This document shows positions 4,276-23,753 of a stretch of 23,753 nucleotides of DNA, one piece after another. Position 1 is the first letter of the stretch, and each line of letters begins with the position of its first letter. A program made the position numbers and the translations under genes. The stretch lies in UHGV virus genome UHGV-0105281. The stretch is one strand, 5' to 3'. The stretch is from a virus. The notes under the pieces were generated by a model. That model saw nothing but the letters and a program-made list of their open reading frames with translations. It was not told where the DNA came from and did no database searches.

Positions 4276-4794
4276 ATGAATCATCAATTGGCTAATCTCG
4301 ATTTCCGGGACATGGTGGTTGTTTCTGGTGATCGCGTGATCACAACCTCCCGCAAGGTAGCAGCTTACTTCGACAAGCAGCATCACCACATCATTCAGAA
4401 AATCGAAAAGCTAGACTGTTCGGATGAATTTCTAACCAGCAACTTTTCGCGGGTTACCTATGAACACAAGGGTAATCAGTATGTTGAATATGAAATTTCC
4501 AAAGACGGTGCGATGTACATCATCATGTCGTTTACCGGCAAAAAAGCTGCCGCCATCAAAGAGGCGTTTATCAAAGCATTTAATTGGATGCGTGACAGGC
4601 TGATGGAGATGGCTCACTCATACCAAAGAGAGCACAACGAGTTAATGCTGGAGTTCATGAAGGAAAAGGATGTTGCCAGTATGTCAGGACGCTTGCTGAA
4701 CCGCTGGGGCAGGATCAAAAAACCGCAACTCATAGCAAGAATCGAAAGGCTTGAGCAGCAGGCGCAAATATCGATCCCCGGACTGCCAAAGTGA
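4276..4794 (+). CDS. rha: Rha-family phage regulatory protein
   Basis: MNHQLANLDFRDMVVVSGDRVITTSRKVAAYFDKQHHHIIQKIEKL is a typical pRha N-terminal domain. The ORF-track start at 4117 lies inside the upstream terminator, so ATG 4276 is preferred. Confidence 0.75.
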   Translation: MNHQLANLDFRDMVVVSGDRVITTSRKVAAYFDKQHHHIIQKIEKLDCSDEFLTSNFSRVTYEHKGNQYVEYEISKDGAMYIIMSFTGKKAAAIKEAFIKAFNWMRDRLMEMAHSYQREHNELMLEFMKEKDVASMSGRLLNRWGRIKKPQLIARIERLEQQAQISIPGLPK

Positions 4795-17599: not shown

Positions 17600-19425
17600 T
17601 GAAAGTAACTGCAAACGGTAAGACATTTACCTTTCCTGATGGTACGAGCACCGAAGATATTGGCACCGCCATTGATGAGTATTTTGCTGGTCAGGCTGTT
17701 CAGCAACAAACAGTTAATCAGGCCAATAATGCACCAACACAGGAAGAACCATCATTGATGCAACAAGCTGGCGATTGGCTCACTGGTGGTCAAAGTGCAG
17801 GGCAAATTGCAGAACAGGCTGGTCGTGGTCTGGTAAACATACCATTTGACGTATTGCAGGGTGGCGCAAGTCTGATTAATGCAATCAGCCAGGGGCTTGG
17901 TGGTCACAAGGTTTTGGACGATGTCTATCGTCCAGTAGATCGACCAACAGACCCTTATGCGCAAGCTGGAGAAACAATTGGCGGGTATTTAGTTCCAGGA
18001 GTTGGAACTGCAGGAAGCATGGCTATTGGATCACTGGCAGAAGCCGCAAACCAGAAAGGCGATTTCGCGCAAAATGCAGCCATAAACGCCGGAGTTAACC
18101 TTGCTGCTCAGGGTGTTCTTTCCGCAGCAGCAAAGGGAATAGGGCGTGGAATAACGGCTATAAAAGGCGATATCGCGCCAGAAGTAGCGAAAAAAATTGC
18201 CACCTCAGAATCGATGGGCGTGACACCAATGACATCTGATGTTATCCCGCCGAAAAATGCTTTCACTCGCGGCCTAACTCAGGATGCCGAGGGGGCTTTG
18301 CTCGGGACAGGCTCAAAGCGAGCTGAGCAGTATGCAAAAAGAAGTCAGCTAGTTAAAAAACAGCTTGAGAAATATGGTGAATATAGCCCATCAGTTGTTG
18401 TTGACGATCTGTATGGTTCTCTGAAGTCAAGGAAGGATTCGGCCGGAAGCGTTATTGAAGACATTACAGCCAAAATGGGAGACACACCAGTTGACACATC
18501 AAAATCTATTAAGGTTATCGACAACGTACTTACCAGAGCTAATAGGCTTGGGAAAGTGGCAAATAAGGATTTGATTCGCGGGTTATCCGATTTGCGAGAA
18601 GAACTTGCTAAACCAGATATAGATTTTGGTCTATTGAGAGAGTTGCGGTCAGCCTTGAGGGAAAGTATTCAGGGAGATGCCATGGTTTTTCCTAATAGCG
18701 CGAAAGCCGCAACTGATACCGTGGAGAGGGCAATGGGGGCAGATTTGAGGAATAACGCAGCGCGGTATTTGGGGGCTGGAGAGGCCGCCAGATACGTCAA
18801 GGCAAACTCTGACTACTCTAACGTCTTCAATAAGGTTCTTAATAAAAGGATTGCGAATAATCTCAACAAAGCTAAAAAAGAGTTTACTCCAGAGCTAATA
18901 AACAGTGTTGTATTCAGCAGAAAACCATCAGATATTAAGAGGATATGGCCAGCTCTTAGTGAAGATGGAAAGAACGCTATGCGTGCTGCTTATATCAGCA
19001 AGATTGCAGAAAAAGCAGGAGACTCGCCAACAAAATTTCTTACCGAGTTAAATAAGTTGAAGTCGCAATCTGACGGTCAGATCTATAACACGATATTCAG
19101 TGGGAGACACATGAAAGAGCTTGATGCTCTTCATGAAGTTCTACAGCAAACAGCAAGGTCGGACGCCGCAAATGTAGTAACACAGACAGGACAATCGCAA
19201 GCCAACAGGATAAGGACGATTGGCGCAACTGCGACTCTTGGCGTATCAATGGGGCTTGAGGCTGGTTTCGGTGCAATGATGCGCTTGTATGAGTCAAAAG
19301 CAGCAAGGAATGCTCTCTTACGTTTGGCAAACACCAAAGCAGGAACGCCAGCCTATGAAAGAGCATTAAGTAACGCTGCAAATGCCATCAGACCGCTGCT
19401 TGCCACTGAGGCAACACAGCAGTGA
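17596..19425 (+). CDS. Ejection protein, gp16-like
   Basis: 609 aa, same length as P22 gp16; ATGA overlap with gp20. Confidence 0.8.
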
Positions 19426-19442
19426 CTAAATGCCATGGATGG

Positions 19443-19631
19443 TTATTTCCTTAGCACATGAAACAATGTTTGCTTTAATTCCACCCATACAATTATGACC
19501 ACTATAGACAGACAAAAGAAACTGAATGCATTGGCATCACGATCGAAACCTTCTCCGGCACTAAATCCGTAAAAGGTCATAAAAAATATAAAAATTGCGC
19601 ACTTTGCAACGTTTACAAATTTTTTCTTCAC
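19443..19631 (-). CDS. Small 2-TM membrane protein (62 aa), downstream of the S24 repressor in the same operon
   Basis: GTG start preceded by a perfect AAGGAGG Shine-Dalgarno on the minus strand; two hydrophobic helices. Confidence 0.55.
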   Translation of the reverse strand: MKKKFVNVAKCAIFIFFMTFYGFSAGEGFDRDANAFSFFCLSIVVIIVWVELKQTLFHVLRK

Positions 19632-19691: not shown

Positions 19692-20333
19692 TCAAAGCAA
19701 CGGGATTTCAAGGTAAACTGCGGTTGCCAAAATACTAACATCTTCATTTCTAACAAGAATATTAGGATACATTGGGTTTAGGGATACTAGGTTTGTCTCT
19801 ATTTCACCAATGTAAACCTGTTTGAAGCTCAATATTTGCTCTTTATCCAATGATGCTATTACATAATCTTTGCTTTTAGCTTTTACTAGAGGGCTGAACG
19901 TGACAACCGATCCTCTGGGAAAGCTAATACCTGAACTTGTAGTCATAGCTTCACCTTCAATAGTCAATGCAAATGCAGAGTCACCAACATTGTATATTGC
20001 CGGATGAAATCTAGACGATGAATGTTCACCTGTGTTTAGGTAATGCATAACTTCATCTAGTTTGAGGATTGGTATTTGCTTTACCAGAACGTCAGGCATG
20101 ACGTTTTTTGTTCCCGGACCCTGACCTTCACCTAGAGCTAACCACTCAGCTGTAGTACCTAATGCGTTGGCTAATGCCTGCAATACCCGAAGCCGTGGTT
20201 TAGCCTCACCACCCTCGTATGCAGCTATTTGACGTTGAACAACACCAGCTAATTTTGACAACTGCGCCTGCGTCATACCCCTGGACTGTCTTGCCAGAGA
20301 TACTCTTGATGGGAATTGATCGTCAAAATTCAT
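19692..20333 (-). CDS. CI/LexA-like repressor (N-terminal HTH, C-terminal S24 peptidase fold) with Ser-to-Ala at the nucleophile position
   Basis: N-terminal HTH (GMTQAQLSKLAGVVQRQIAAYEGG); C-terminal S24-like region in which FALTIEGEAM aligns with LexA FLLRVSGMSM, placing Ala where the catalytic Ser sits (codon GCT confirmed in DNA); the Lys of the dyad is retained (SFKQV). Confidence 0.8.
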   Translation of the reverse strand: MNFDDQFPSRVSLARQSRGMTQAQLSKLAGVVQRQIAAYEGGEAKPRLRVLQALANALGTTAEWLALGEGQGPGTKNVMPDVLVKQIPILKLDEVMHYLNTGEHSSSRFHPAIYNVGDSAFALTIEGEAMTTSSGISFPRGSVVTFSPLVKAKSKDYVIASLDKEQILSFKQVYIGEIETNLVSLNPMYPNILVRNEDVSILATAVYLEIPLL

Positions 20334-20354
20334 TAGTTCACCATAAAAAATTCA

Positions 20355-20383
20355 TTGACTCATGCTGAGTGTGAGTGAATAAT
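20355..20383 (+). promoter_or_regulatory. Rightward promoter (TTGACT, 17-bp spacer, AATAAT) with overlapping operator-like palindrome and TGAGT repeats
   Basis: Promoter hexamers read directly; palindrome ACTCA-TGC-TGAGT at 20358-20370 and tandem TGAGTG at 20366-20377. Confidence 0.4.
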
Positions 20384-20432
20384 CAAACTACAAAAAGTGA
20401 GATTATGAGTTTTTTAAAAACAGGAGTGCATA

Positions 20433-20606
20433 ATGACTGAAAAGATATCTTCCATCAAGCCGCGTCAGGTTCGTTTTACAGAAAAGGTTGATTCACATAT
20501 CCGCGAATCAGCAAAAAGATGCCATAGGTCAATTCAGGCAGAGATAGCTTATCGAATGGAGTTATTGATGAAACTTGAGGCAAAGGGCGATGTTGTCATC
20601 CAATAA
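20433..20606 (+). CDS. Arc/Mnt-family ribbon-helix-helix regulator (57 aa)
   Basis: Not in the ORF track (under 60 aa). AGGAG RBS 6 nt upstream; PRQVRFTEKVDSHIRESAKRCHRSIQAEIAYRMELL parallels Arc PQFNLRWPREVLDLVRKVAEENGRSVNSEIYQRVMESF. Confidence 0.6.
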   Translation: MTEKISSIKPRQVRFTEKVDSHIRESAKRCHRSIQAEIAYRMELLMKLEAKGDVVIQ

Positions 20607-20679
20607 AAATAGTGAAGCCCGGCAGTGCGCGAACACAAACCGGGCCTCTATGTCAGTAACCGTATGCAAGGAAACTAAC

Positions 20680-21306
20680 ATGAATATTGTAGCAAAATCA
20701 GATTACAACTTCCACGGAGTTGAGTTGGTGCCCACCCGTGATATGCATGGTGTTTGGTTTACATCATCTAATATTGCATCTGCACTTAAATACGCAAATA
20801 GTCGTGCAGTAACAATGATTTATAACAAGTATAGCGATGAGTTTAGCGCCGGAATGACTCAGGTACTCGAAGTGAGTACCTCAGGAAATTATCGCAAAAA
20901 AGTGCGAGTTTTCTCACTACGCGGTGCCCACCTAATCGCGATGTTTGCTCGCACTCCGGTAGCCAAAGAGTTCCGCCGCTGGGTGCTGGATATTTTGGAT
21001 CGGCAGGCAGAATGCTCACCGATTGCAAAACAGTTTACTGACGAAGAACTGGTTAATCTCTGCTACTTACAATTGTGGATGGAGAAGAGTCAACAAATGT
21101 GCAAACACATCTACCCAGGAATGAAGCAAATTGGTTCTGAGCTTTCAGGAAGGATTTACGATATTGCATATGAGACTCGCTACATGTCAGAAGAAACCAA
21201 GAAATCACTTCTTCGTGAAATGAAGAATCTTGATACCAACAATTTTGTCGTAAAGAACGCTCAGCCAATGCTGGCAAAACTTCGCGGCGAGGAATGGATT
21301 CATTGA
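20680..21306 (+). CDS. Bro-N domain antirepressor-like protein
   Basis: 208 aa from ATG 20680 (AAGGA RBS); Bro-N-like N-terminus (FHGVELVPTRDMHGVWFTSSNIASALKY...SLRGAHLIAMFARTPVAKEFRRWVLDIL). The ORF-track start at 20575 overlaps the RHH gene. Confidence 0.7.
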   Translation: MNIVAKSDYNFHGVELVPTRDMHGVWFTSSNIASALKYANSRAVTMIYNKYSDEFSAGMTQVLEVSTSGNYRKKVRVFSLRGAHLIAMFARTPVAKEFRRWVLDILDRQAECSPIAKQFTDEELVNLCYLQLWMEKSQQMCKHIYPGMKQIGSELSGRIYDIAYETRYMSEETKKSLLREMKNLDTNNFVVKNAQPMLAKLRGEEWIH

Positions 21307-21321
21307 TTGGTGCGCCGGACT

Positions 21322-21400
21322 GCGCAAAAAGAAAACCGCCAGTGTGCTGCTGGCGGCCTATGTCACACCCTTACTACCACATAAGGAATGCCTAATGACT
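21322..21400 (-). ncRNA. Predicted sar-like antisense sRNA covering the RBS and start codon of the downstream Ant-like gene
   Basis: Minus-strand promoter inside the start of the Ant-like gene (-35 GTGACA at 21430-21435, 17-bp spacer, -10 TACATT at 21407-21412) and a minus-strand intrinsic terminator (hairpin 21336-21356 followed by a T-run at 21322-21335). Confidence 0.3.
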
Positions 21401-22123
21401 TTTAAGAATGTAGCAAACATCGGATCCGTTGTCACGGATAAAACCATTGATAGCCAGTACCTGTTAGAGATGGTCAATCATGCTCGTAGACAGTGCGGGG
21501 AAAAAGAAGTCCGAAATAACGACTTTATTGCACGCATTAAGGATGAACTTGAAGGTGAGCACTACGAAATTTTCGTAGTTCAAAAATCAAACAAGACAAC
21601 TTCTGAAAAAGTTGTTATGTCAATTAAGCAAGCCCTTCGAGTGGCTGCTCGTGAATCTAAAGCTGTTCGCCGCTCACTTGTAGACCAACTTGAAAGTATG
21701 CAAGAAGCGCACATTAAAAGCGGTAAATCGTCGAGTGGACTTGTTGAGTATCGCCAGGCGCGAACATTGAAAATGACGGTTGAAGCTGTTACCAATCTGT
21801 TCGATTTGATGCCAAATCTTGCGCCGGAAGCAAAGCAGACTGCGGCAGCAAGCATAATCAACCCGATCGTTGGTTTTAATGCAATACCTCTTCCAGCAAT
21901 AGAAGAGCATTACTACTCAGCAGGGGAGGTTGCAGAGCAGCTTGGAGTAACGGCCAACAAGATTGGTCGCATTGCTAACGCAAACAACCTCAAAACTGAG
22001 CAGTACGGGAAGTTCTTCCTGGATAAATCTGCACATTCCAGCAAACAGGTGGAAGCATTCCGCTACAATGCGGAAGGTGTTAAAGCTCTACAACACCTGA
22101 TTCATGGGAGTAATGTTGCATAA
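21395..22123 (+). CDS. Ant-like antirepressor (Rha/AntA-like N-terminus with KilA-C-like C-terminus)
   Basis: 242 aa from ATG 21395 (AAGGA RBS); N-terminal region resembles the pRha pattern and the C-terminal region resembles KilA-C (YYSAGEVAEQLGVTANKIGRIANANNLKTEQYGKFF). Confidence 0.55.
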   Translation: MTFKNVANIGSVVTDKTIDSQYLLEMVNHARRQCGEKEVRNNDFIARIKDELEGEHYEIFVVQKSNKTTSEKVVMSIKQALRVAARESKAVRRSLVDQLESMQEAHIKSGKSSSGLVEYRQARTLKMTVEAVTNLFDLMPNLAPEAKQTAAASIINPIVGFNAIPLPAIEEHYYSAGEVAEQLGVTANKIGRIANANNLKTEQYGKFFLDKSAHSSKQVEAFRYNAEGVKALQHLIHGSNVA

Positions 22124-22344
22124 TGGCAAAGAAAAAATATGGCATTATGCCGCCAAGAATCAAAGGAAGAGCCAGGGTAAAAGGCGATGCTGGGAGGTAT
22201 CACATTCTTGGAGTTCTGTGGCATGAGAGAGCTTTAATTTTAAGTAGACCTCATGGGTACATTGAAAAGGTATCTATAGATAGAGTAGAGATTCTTCCCC
22301 TTACACCTGAAGAAGAAGAAACGTACGGACTTTTTGATAACTAA
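22123..22344 (+). CDS. Hypothetical small basic protein (73 aa)
   Basis: TAATG-coupled to the upstream gene and followed by a strong terminator. Confidence 0.5.
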   Translation: MAKKKYGIMPPRIKGRARVKGDAGRYHILGVLWHERALILSRPHGYIEKVSIDRVEILPLTPEEEETYGLFDN

Positions 22345-22350
22345 CCAACT

Positions 22351-22378
22351 AAACCCGCTTAATCGCGGGTTTTTTATA
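22351..22378 (+). terminator. Strong hairpin terminator between convergent operons
   Basis: aaacccgc-ttaat-gcgggttt hairpin followed by ttttt; A-run on the 5' side gives partial bidirectionality. Confidence 0.7.
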
Positions 22379-22400: not shown

Positions 22401-22937
22401 TCAAACAACCCACCAGTTTGCCTGATTGGATACCAGCCTTGCAGTTTTTATGGAATTAATTATGCCATGCTCAAGAGCCTTGTTAGCATCCAAAATGGTC
22501 GAGTCTGCTATCAGGGATGCCCACCTAATATGGGTTCCGATGTCGATATTGAACGTCTCAACGAAGCGATCAAGATCGTTATCGAGGCATTTCCCGTACT
22601 CTCTCAATCTGGCATGGTCGGCGGCTGGGGAGGCAAAGCACCATAATAGAGGATGTAACAGGAATCTTGATAATGGGTTTGCGAAACGTTCTGAGCCAGC
22701 CAGGAAAACGATATTAGCTATGGATTCAACATTGCTTATGTTGTGAGTTCTAACGGTAACAGGGAGTGACTTAAGAAAGTTATACGCAGTAAAGCCAGCG
22801 GCTGTTTCCCCTCCCTGACTTGATATATGGATATTTAATTCAGTTGCGCCTTGAGATAATGCGGTGAGACAGTGGTTCTGAAGTTGCCCAACAGTGGCGG
22901 TGTTAACGGGGCATAAGAAATGAATTGTGTGCAGCAT
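22401..22937 (-). CDS. ClpP-fold (peptidase S14-like) serine protease, translationally coupled to mnt
   Basis: 178 aa; aligns by eye with E. coli ClpP over the catalytic core, with Ser (VESIANIVFLAG), His (FLLHPLL) and Asp (ADSTIL) all present; its ATG overlaps the mnt stop (TAATG). Confidence 0.7.
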   Translation of the reverse strand: MLHTIHFLCPVNTATVGQLQNHCLTALSQGATELNIHISSQGGETAAGFTAYNFLKSLPVTVRTHNISNVESIANIVFLAGSERFANPLSRFLLHPLLWCFASPAADHARLREYGKCLDNDLDRFVETFNIDIGTHIRWASLIADSTILDANKALEHGIINSIKTARLVSNQANWWVV

Positions 22938-23191
22938 TATTTATCATCCTTGCCATAAATCTTTTTAAGTGTCTCAAACACAACAGTCTTGAACTGCTCT
23001 GCTTGCTGATCAGCCAAGCGTTCAGCTTCGTCTCGATAGCCTGCAATCGGTGATGGTTCAGATAACGCCTTCTGTACGATCTGAACTAGTTCAGAATTGA
23101 TAGACCGACCATTCATTTTTGCCCTTTGGTCTAACTTTGCTTTTAACTCTGCTGGAAGGCGCAACTTAAATTGTGGGTCTTCTCTGGACAT
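22937..23191 (-). CDS. mnt: Mnt repressor (ribbon-helix-helix)
   Basis: 84 aa; MSREDPQFKLRLPAELKAKLDQRAKMNGRSINSELVQIVQKALSEPSPIAGYRDEAERLADQQ closely matches my recollection of P22 Mnt. Confidence 0.85.
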   Translation of the reverse strand: MSREDPQFKLRLPAELKAKLDQRAKMNGRSINSELVQIVQKALSEPSPIAGYRDEAERLADQQAEQFKTVVFETLKKIYGKDDK

Positions 23192-23278: not shown

Positions 23279-23437
23279 ATGCAAGGTGCAAGAAAAATGC
23301 CGCAGTTTAATTTGCGGATGCCTAAAGAAGTATTGGATTTGGTGCGCAAGGTAGCCAAAGAGAATGAGCGATCTGTTAACTCTGAGATTTACAAGCGAGT
23401 ATTGGACAGCCTGAAGAGGGAGGGGGTAATGGTATGA
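23279..23437 (+). CDS. arc: Arc repressor (ribbon-helix-helix)
   Basis: 52 aa, not in the ORF track; MQGARKMPQFNLRMPKEVLDLVRKVAKENERSVNSEIYKRVLDSLKREG closely matches my recollection of P22 Arc; GGGAGAGGG RBS. Confidence 0.85.
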   Translation: MQGARKMPQFNLRMPKEVLDLVRKVAKENERSVNSEIYKRVLDSLKREGVMV

Positions 23438-23703
23438 GGGTGTCATTGCTTGATCGTTCTTTACAATTTTTGTCTGGCGCAATCATTGTGGTTTGCTTGC
23501 TTGTGATTTTTACAGCGCTAATCAATATGTATCAATCAGGGGAACGATTGACAAAGACGATAGAGGAAAAGAAATCAGTCTCAAATTACGAAGTATCACA
23601 TGCACATAACGATTTAGTAGAAAGCCTTGACCGTATTAACAAGAGGCTTGACGAGACAAATATGCTACTTAAGCAAATTCAAAATGAAGTGGAAAAACGT
23701 TGA
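23434..23703 (+). CDS. Membrane-anchored coiled-coil protein (89 aa) in the position ant occupies in P22
   Basis: ATGA overlap with the arc stop; N-terminal TM helix (FLSGAIIVVCLLVIFTALINMY) and a charged helical C-terminus. Confidence 0.55.
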   Translation: MRVSLLDRSLQFLSGAIIVVCLLVIFTALINMYQSGERLTKTIEEKKSVSNYEVSHAHNDLVESLDRINKRLDETNMLLKQIQNEVEKR

Positions 23704-23753
23704 AGCCCCAACTGCTGGAACAGTCAGGGCTTCGGTATCAACAAATCGTCTTA

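Follow-up and report, generated by a model that had tools for sequence, protein, structure and literature searches.

The immI region of phage P22, which holds mnt, arc, sar and ant, lies in the so-called ant moron, a hypervariable segment that separates gene 16 from the tailspike gene and for which Casjens and colleagues counted ten types among sixteen genomes, and it is built of a repressor gene that diverges from an operon (PMC2629481). Here we analyze a locus of similar layout in UHGV virus genome UHGV-0105281, of which a stretch of 23,753 nucleotides, referred to below as the window, was considered at its full length. The window belongs to the genome of a P22-like (Lederbergvirus) phage and leads from the nin region into lysis, head and ejection genes. 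Its gene 16 homologue, encoding 609 amino acids (aa), ends at 19425, and the module under study follows it in the ant moron; in phage JEP4 and in Escherichia coli E66, the module is followed by mnt and then by the tailspike gene.

The module spans positions 19692-22375 and comprises a CI/LexA-type repressor gene that diverges from a four-gene operon encoding, in order, a 57-aa Arc-family protein, an Ant protein with Bro-N and P22_AR_C domains, a 242-aa protein and a 73-aa protein. All five open reading frames (ORFs) are intact and preceded by Shine-Dalgarno sites. Direct observations comprise the gene content, domain assignments, motifs of promoters and terminators, a conserved RNA structure and the cassette swapping described below. 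The features of the module are as follows, all positions being those of the window.

19692-20333, minus strand: CI/LexA-type repressor of 213 aa, with Pfam domains HTH_3 (9e-13, N-terminal) and Peptidase_S24 (1e-12, C-terminal)
20334-20432, unstranded: divergent control region of 99 bp, from a promoter scan and repeats
20433-20606, plus strand: first gene of the operon, in Arc's position, with an AGGAG Shine-Dalgarno site; 57-aa Arc-family ribbon-helix-helix protein by profile evidence
20606-20682, minus strand: predicted cis-antisense RNA of about 77 nt, homologous to sar, covering the Shine-Dalgarno site and ATG of the Bro-N ant gene
20680-21306, plus strand: putative antirepressor Ant, 208 aa, with Pfam domains Bro-N (1.9e-10, N-terminal) and P22_AR_C (2.8e-14, C-terminal)
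21324-21435, minus strand: probable second cis-antisense unit, sar-like, spanning the 242-aa gene start, from a promoter and terminator scan
21435-21407, minus strand: candidate promoter of this second unit, GTGACA, 17 nt, TACATT with a TG extension
About 21400 to 21324, minus strand: predicted RNA of the second unit
21359-21333, minus strand: terminator hairpin of the second unit, followed by UUUUCUUUUU
21395-22123, plus strand: 242-aa two-domain protein, with its true ATG at 21395, described by an AlphaFold2 model and fold matches
22123-22344, plus strand: 73-aa orphan protein, its start overlapping the 242-aa stop (TAATG); phrog_4977, function unknown
22350-22375, unstranded: operon-end terminator hairpin AAACCCGC-TTAAT-GCGGGTTT followed by a T run, read from the sequence

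The locus shares with P22 immI its genomic site, its divergent repressor and operon, a small Arc-family ribbon-helix-helix gene in first place (as judged from profiles), a sar-homologous RNA that covers the ant ribosome-binding site and has its promoter inside the first ant codons, and the P22_AR_C domain of Ant. The sequence-only reading had described a second immI-like module here, which agrees with the gene order, the same as P22 mnt/arc/sar/ant, with the presence of a sar homologue and with an Ant that carries P22_AR_C as P22 Ant does. The locus differs from P22 immI in that the repressor at the Mnt position combines HTH_3 with Peptidase_S24 and is not a ribbon-helix-helix protein, and hence not a Mnt; in that Ant has Bro-N in place of the N domain of P22 Ant, which is P22_AR_N; and in being extended by another antirepressor-type gene, which has an antisense unit of its own, and by the 73-aa orphan. 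The order Mnt-like, 57-aa Arc and Bro-N Ant is also shared by gp19-gp21 of Salmonella phage SPN3UB, which differs in having unrelated genes after Ant. We consider it probable, at roughly 60%, that the module is an immI-type antirepressor cassette with a swapped regulator pair in the ant moron of a P22-like phage. What is new is the CI-type repressor in Mnt's place of the well-known immI circuit, not a new kind of system.

A CI-like repressor and an Arc-family protein in the regulator positions

The C-terminal domain of the repressor aligns throughout with lambda CI structures (E 1e-7), and the protein shares with lambda CI, P22 C2 and LexA the helix-turn-helix and S24 fold and the equivalent of Lys192, kept in the motif FKQ. 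It differs from them in lacking both the catalytic Ser and the Ala-Gly site. The motif EGEAMT stands opposite EGNSMT of lambda CI, the equivalent of Ser149 being Ala, so that the Ser-Lys dyad of the S24 self-cleaving repressors (LexA/CI/UmuD) is incomplete; likewise, the region opposite VQAG of lambda CI reads KLDEVMHYL, with neither an Ala-Gly nor a Cys-Gly cleavage site in the linker. The repressor further differs from lambda CI and P22 C2 in its location, a late-region moron where it faces an ant operon, and not immC facing cro.

These features bear on an alternative in which the module is triggered by the SOS response, the S24 repressor cleaving itself on RecA filaments and releasing Ant, which would induce this or neighbouring prophages. 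LexA-controlled antirepressors, such as the Gifsy antirepressors or 186 Tum, resemble such a trigger, except that the sensor would here be phage-encoded. The Peptidase_S24 domain and the retained Lys speak in favour of it, as does a census of 109 related repressor representatives, 63 of which carry Ser/Lys (14 have Ser/Arg and 20 have Ala). Among the repressor homologues that adjoin ant operons in other genera, the Ser/Ala state is mixed, and those of loci L014, L025, L032 and L047 keep the Ser-Lys dyad, L025 and L032 being loci of Yersinia or Pantoea. On the other hand, the nucleophile is Ala in the window, in the JEP4 copy, which is identical, and in the nearest 50%-cluster representative (76% identical), which reads GDAMT. 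Moreover, no Ala-Gly site was found at the lambda CI position in the repressor homologues beside ant operons of other genera. Because the catalytic Ser is replaced by Ala, this copy is predicted not to self-cleave and DNA damage not to be its direct trigger. Self-cleavage of the window repressor during SOS is thus unlikely as judged from the alignment, and an SOS-triggered module here appears to us decidedly improbable. The label 'S24 repressor' given by the sequence-only reading is therefore correct for the Pfam domain, while the SOS cleavage that such a label suggests is not borne out.

We propose that the CI-like repressor of the immI-type cassette is a functional analogue of Mnt. The possibility that its gene encodes the main repressor of the phage was rejected, as JEP4 carries an identical gene together with a normal immC with separate C2, cro and c1; its C2 is 26% identical to the CI-like repressor and keeps GDSM/FKK. 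In the collection of isolated phages, this repressor occurs in JEP4 alone, and one Providencia phage has a relative with 41% identity.

Between the repressor gene and the operon, a promoter scan identified a sigma-70-like promoter directed toward the operon, with TTGACT (20355-20360), a 17-nt spacer and AATAAT (20378-20383), for a total of 10/12 matches. The palindrome ACTCA-TGC-TGAGT (20358-20370) lies over the -35 and the spacer and is a candidate operator, as are further copies of TGAGT at 20366, 20372 and 20406. Homologous cassettes have palindromes of their own at the same place, abutting a conserved TTGAC(A/T).

The 57-aa ORF had been read from the sequence as an Arc-family ribbon-helix-helix gene, and this assignment is borne out by profile comparisons. 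Aligned with hhalign against a local Arc/Mnt alignment, made of sequences from the window and related loci, the 57-aa family gave a probability of 88.7-90.3% (E about 2e-6), and the strand and both helices (A and B) fell into register. When searched against the PDB, the family profile retrieved ribbon-helix-helix proteins only (AmrZ 6.6e-4, pArc 8.4e-4, Arc 0.025, CopG-family proteins and Mnt), and the protein also matches phrog_10182 at 2e-37; no similarity to Arc was found at the BLAST level. The family is conserved in 30 clusters at 90% identity, from Salmonella, Klebsiella, Serratia, Hafnia, Enterobacter, Yersinia and others, nearly all of exactly 57 aa and at least 81% identical. The ORF is thus a real, strongly conserved gene, and the lack of conservation that the sequence-only reading had named as telling against it was not seen. 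A toxin-antitoxin reading, suggested by a weak ParD_like match, was rejected: the match reflects the generic ribbon-helix-helix fold, the downstream genes are of the Ant type and the locus has the sar design.

Two antirepressor-type genes and their predicted antisense RNAs

The 208-aa product of the second gene matches phrog_245, 'anti-repressor Ant' (2e-53), and is 77% identical to gp21 of SPN3UB, which lies behind Mnt-like and 57-aa Arc-like genes. Its Bro-N domain, expected from the sequence-only reading, was confirmed by the Pfam search, together with P22_AR_C. From its domains and position, we infer that this protein is Ant and would bind and inactivate C2-type repressors.

The predicted RNA on the opposite strand of the ant start forms a 5' stem-loop with the anti-Shine-Dalgarno sequence UUCCUU in its loop, followed by a terminator hairpin and a U run, with a minimum free energy of -35.1 kcal/mol (z = -6.2). 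This architecture is that of the canonical sar of phage phiv205-1, to which the 5' half is also clearly similar in sequence, and the RNA shares with the sar family of Rfam (RF00262) the two hairpins, the anti-Shine-Dalgarno in the 5' loop and the 3' terminator. Across 21 diverged loci, 18 pairs are kept, nine of them with compensatory changes; 91% of cells are paired, versus 34-46% in slid controls, and the covariation score was reached by none of 500 shuffles. Since many of the pairs are G-U, which would turn into A-C mismatches if the opposite strand were read, the structure belongs to a minus-strand RNA. Its extended -10, TGCTACAAT (20686-20694), lies inside ant codons 2-5, as in the canonical ant start ATGAATAGTATAGCA.

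Scans with Rfam covered the whole region and an 861-nt sub-region at E<=10 and found only the canonical sar cut by the window end, with no match of RF00262 at 20606-20682 or at 21324-21400. SymR (E 0.15) and Hrs13 (E 1.8) were set aside as chance-level look-alikes of the two antisense sites. A covariance model (R1) built from Bro-N-ant antisense sites only recovers the canonical P22-type sar of locus L002 at 65 bits and the cut sar of the window at 38 bits. Structure, covariation and this cross-detection place a sar homologue over the ant ribosome-binding site, and the predicted RNA is a diverged sar that is missed by the Rfam model.

The 242-aa protein matches phrog_1726, 'anti-repressor', at 2e-100 and belongs to a family of about 2100 proteins without a Pfam domain. 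Its AlphaFold2 model (predicted local distance difference test, pLDDT, 71.6) comprises an N domain of beta-alpha-alpha-beta-beta-alpha topology that is joined through a helical linker to a winged helix at the C terminus. As modelled, it shows an N domain resembling KilA-N/APSES and a C domain with a MerR-type winged helix; the APSES and KilA-N folds are regarded as relatives. In Foldseek comparisons with predicted viral structures, proteins annotated as antirepressor, KilAC, KilA or Rha matched over both domains (E 7e-10 to 1e-4), these labels being annotations, while matches in the PDB were weak (best E 0.07) and consistently of the MerR/RacA type. The protein thus resembles, at the fold level and over both domains, the two-domain phage antirepressor-like class, in which a KilA-N, Bro-N or Rha N domain is joined to a DNA-binding C domain, and the viral matches support the term 'antirepressor-like' at that level. 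The sequence-only reading had called it an Ant-like KilA-C protein. The first half of this name fits the fold; the second does not, as PF03374 (ANT, KilAC) had no match at E<=1 in the protein or its C-terminal half, although it scores 1.3e-32 on the product of the gene at 255-977, and hhalign of the family against that Rha and KilAC protein gave a probability of 0.1%. PADLOC defence models returned nothing relevant for the module proteins, with generic helix-turn-helix matches for the repressor and a weak match of mad1 (E 0.0036) to the winged helix of the 242-aa protein.

The halves of the 242-aa protein, residues 1-105 and 110-242, also occur apart, fused to other domains, in many Enterobacterales prophages (loci L019-L061), which makes it a two-domain protein; domain shuffling in this family is extensive. 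Relatives were also seen in records with non-enterobacterial labels, namely, Chryseobacterium sp. 18061 (L016), a Bacillota metagenome-assembled genome (L042) and Komagataeibacter xylinus (L058). The first of these holds a whole operon of the enterobacterial type (Mnt-like, Arc, Bro-N Ant and 242-aa genes), and these records may be contamination or mislabelled assemblies.

The start of the 242-aa gene is covered by a second, probable sar-like antisense RNA, sar-like in layout only: it shares with RF00262 the common arrangement and no more. Its elements are an invariant GTGACA -35, an extended -10 of the form TGnTAnnnT and a covarying minus-strand terminator followed by UUUUUCUUUUU. The -35 hexamer and the key -10 bases do not vary across 16 diverged loci, whereas the residues encoded by the same nucleotides do. 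The -35 takes in codon 13 in full, together with the third base of codon 12 and two bases of codon 14; codon 12 encodes V, S or A in 242-like genes, while its base in the hexamer remains T. Similarly, codons 5-7 differ (N/T, V/L and A/T/S) without any change of the -10 bases, and in the terminator nine pairs are kept, four of them with compensatory changes. The first 15 residues of the 242-aa protein are predicted to be disordered, which fits a constraint at the nucleotide level and not at the protein level. R1 matches the start of 242-like genes in loci where these directly follow the ribbon-helix-helix gene.

The folds of these proteins raise the question of whether they are antirepressors at all. 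In an alternative reading, the Bro-N and KilA-N-like proteins would be DNA-binding regulators or effectors directed at the host or at competitors, placed under a moron switch of their own, with superinfection exclusion, anti-defence or control of read-through into the tailspike gene as examples. Bro-N, KilA-N/APSES and MerR-type winged helices are all DNA-binding folds, the 242-aa family has no characterised member, and the ant moron is known for unrelated accessory genes and for an influence on tailspike expression (PMC2629481). Nevertheless, the 208-aa protein has P22_AR_C and stands behind Arc and sar exactly as ant does, and the 242-aa gene has the same antisense design, its closest predicted structures being annotated as antirepressor, KilAC or Rha. 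We consequently hold the non-antirepressor reading to be unlikely.

Exchange of regulator heads and a proposed mechanism

The module is found complete, with 95% identity, in phage JEP4 and, with 95-99% identity, in 26 of 5426 complete E. coli genomes. A nearly identical block of Ant, 242-aa and 73-aa genes, sar-like spacer included, occurs in prophages of E. coli 55989 (98-99.6% identity) and XB2 (91-99% identity). These operons differ from that of the window in being headed by a Mnt-like (106 aa) and Arc (57 aa) pair, in place of which the window has the CI-like repressor and 57-aa genes as far as the small gene's stop codon: nucleotide identity begins exactly there, at position 20604. On the right, the shared effector block is bounded by 22375, where the JEP4 match ends. 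The immI-type nature of the unit proposed by the sequence-only reading gains from this comparison, since in other prophages a genuine Mnt-like/Arc pair drives this Ant-242-73 block. Less widespread is the 73-aa protein: present as that reading had listed it, it forms eight clusters, the named ones from E. coli or Salmonella, and in other genera its gene does not follow the 242-aa gene, so that it is an orphan of narrow distribution and not a core part of the module.

We surveyed 54 loci taken from one-genome-per-species contigs. Where an upstream regulator was recognisable, it was a Mnt-like and Arc pair, a longer Mnt-like protein alone, or the CI-like repressor with its 57-aa partner, the last being seen in Buttiauxella, Xenorhabdus, Providencia, Yersinia and Pantoea; these heads stand before a ribbon-helix-helix, Bro-N Ant and 242-like gene order. 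The Mnt-like/Arc and CI-like/57-aa pairs replace one another from locus to locus across Enterobacterales. In these loci the CI-like and 57-aa genes always occur together, including seven distant loci, and the pair is 24-63% identical across genera; as judged from this co-occurrence, it is a co-inherited unit. The presence of the same effector block under different heads indicates that the regulator head and the effector block are separate, exchangeable modules. The P22 immI circuit can thus be regarded as made of exchangeable parts, a regulator head (Mnt and Arc, a long Mnt alone, or CI-like and 57-aa proteins) being joined precisely to an antirepressor-type effector block, and an antisense layout of the sar type is seen not only at ant but also at the start of a second antirepressor-type gene unrelated to it.

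Such mobility could also mean that the module is a recombinational leftover, a silent hitch-hiker from illegitimate exchange with no current function in this phage. Genetic flux in the ant moron is very high, and ant and arc are degraded in several phages (PMC2629481); in the window, the S24 catalytic Ser is lost and a second complete immI module adjoins. Such decay is at odds, however, with five intact ORFs with Shine-Dalgarno sites, with the 95-99% identity of the complete module in JEP4 and the 26 E. coli genomes, with the joint conservation of the regulator pair across genera and with promoter bases and RNA helices maintained by compensatory change. We regard this explanation as very improbable.

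With P22 immI as a guide, a mechanism can be proposed for an immI-type cassette with swapped regulators, in which all binding events, the targets of Ant and the expression of the RNAs are predictions. In the lysogen, the CI-like protein would bind operators in the 99-bp divergent region and shut off the promoter at 20355-20383, which is the role of Mnt in P22. After infection or loss of the repressor, the operon would make the 57-aa Arc-family protein, which would feed back on the promoter and limit expression, along with the 208-aa Ant and the 242-aa KilA-N-like/MerR-like protein, and these last two would bind and inactivate CI/C2-type repressors of this phage or of co-resident prophages. Each antirepressor-type gene would be damped by a short cis-antisense RNA that blocks translation of residual mRNA: the RNA would start from a promoter in the first codons of the gene, pair with the ribosome-binding site and end at the conserved minus-strand terminator in the spacer. 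With Ala in place of Ser, the repressor would probably stay uncleaved in SOS and use its S24 domain for dimerisation only.

Several observations weigh against this interpretation. The main immC repressor of the phage is outside the window, and the presumed target of Ant is thus unseen. Enrichment of TGAGT, four copies in 99 bp, is not significant, as 351 of 5000 shuffles equal it, and the candidate operators are statistically indistinguishable from chance. Single-sequence Pfam matches of the 57-aa protein fall below the cut-off (ParD_like 19.8 bits; Arc 16 bits versus 20.4), and its AlphaFold2 monomer model is one continuous helix (residues 17-50) with no helix-turn-helix, which does not support a ribbon-helix-helix fold; ribbon-helix-helix proteins are obligate dimers, which makes the monomer model weak evidence either way. 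Searches of the 242-aa protein and its halves against Pfam, also at E<=1 on the split halves, and against NCBIfam gave no match and hence no antirepressor domain at the sequence level, and its KilA-N-like and MerR-like folds are DNA-binding, so that it could instead be a transcription factor. The fold of the second antisense unit is modest (z = -1.9), and neither R1 nor the Rfam sar model detected this unit in the window. Finally, the literature searched held no description of the module and no experiment on it, an absence that is itself no proof.

The mixed Ser/Ala state of the S24 domain offers natural variants on the link between DNA damage and antirepressor release. A more ambitious scenario, and a doubtful one, would make the CI-like and 57-aa pair a portable sensor head. 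In relatives with a Ser-Lys dyad, antirepressor release would respond to RecA and induce co-resident heteroimmune prophages in trans, whereas in this phage the sensor would have been deliberately blinded by the change of Ser to Ala; the two antirepressor-type genes in tandem, each under an antisense RNA of its own, would be switched on only by infection or another cue, and the second antisense unit would represent a new family of sar-like RNAs. For annotation, the 242-aa family and the diverged copies of sar are currently missed by standard models.

The adjoining canonical cassette and other neighbouring genes

Directly to the right of the module lies a second, canonical cassette, with the following features.

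22401-22937, minus strand: ClpP-like serine protease gene (Pfam CLP_protease 2e-11), its Ser and His motifs apparently retained as judged by eye
22937-23191, minus strand: mnt (Pfam), 2.6 kb from the divergent repressor gene of the module
23267 (TTG), or more likely ATG at 23279, to 23437, plus strand: arc (Pfam)
Between arc and sar, within 23434-23753: ORF of 89 aa with one predicted membrane or coiled-coil segment (phrog_27312)
23698-23753, minus strand: canonical sar, cut by the window end (Rfam RF00262, 51 bits versus a cut-off of 43 bits)

The mnt and arc genes had been placed at 23.0-23.4 kb by the sequence-only reading, and both were recovered by Pfam. Because sar is cut by the end of the window, the canonical ant must begin just beyond it, and a further ant gene, which would be the third ant and the fifth antirepressor gene, is probably encoded there. 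The clpP-like gene starts on the mnt stop codon and should therefore be co-expressed with mnt in lysogens. A cassette of clpP-like, mnt, arc and ant genes was also observed between tail genes L and K of the lambda-like phage PhiR12_1 and in phiv205-1.

The same reading had counted at least four antirepressor-family proteins. The domains on which this count relied are present: the nin-region gene at 255-977 encodes Rha and KilAC (ANT 1e-32) and the post-lysis gene at 4276-4794 encodes Rha and ORF11CD3, as found by Pfam. The count itself is less secure, as it includes these two genes, both of which have counterparts in JEP4, that of 255-977 being annotated 'DNA binding protein Roi'. Both the nin-region Rha/KilAC (Roi) gene and the post-lysis Rha gene belong to the standard accessory repertoire of P22-like phages, and we know of no established antirepressor role for either. 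The two adjoining ant cassettes are compatible with layered or cross-immunity control, or with antirepressor warfare, which is speculation; side by side, they nonetheless provide a concrete system for asking if antirepressors target different repressors, that is, for studying prophage cross-talk in polylysogens.

In JEP4 (L001, 6968-9699) and in the prophages of E. coli E66, 55989 and XB2, a lone mnt faces the tailspike gene directly, arc and ant being absent from the interval, an arrangement noted for ST64T-type phages (PMC2629481). There, the lone Mnt may act on transcription into the tailspike gene. At the other side of the module, between gene 16 and the CI-like repressor, lies a 62-aa hydrophobic ORF (19443-19631, minus strand) whose sole match is phrog_21338. 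Its DNA gives many of the partial matches among the 539 E. coli genomes that were hit and is thus far more widespread than the module.

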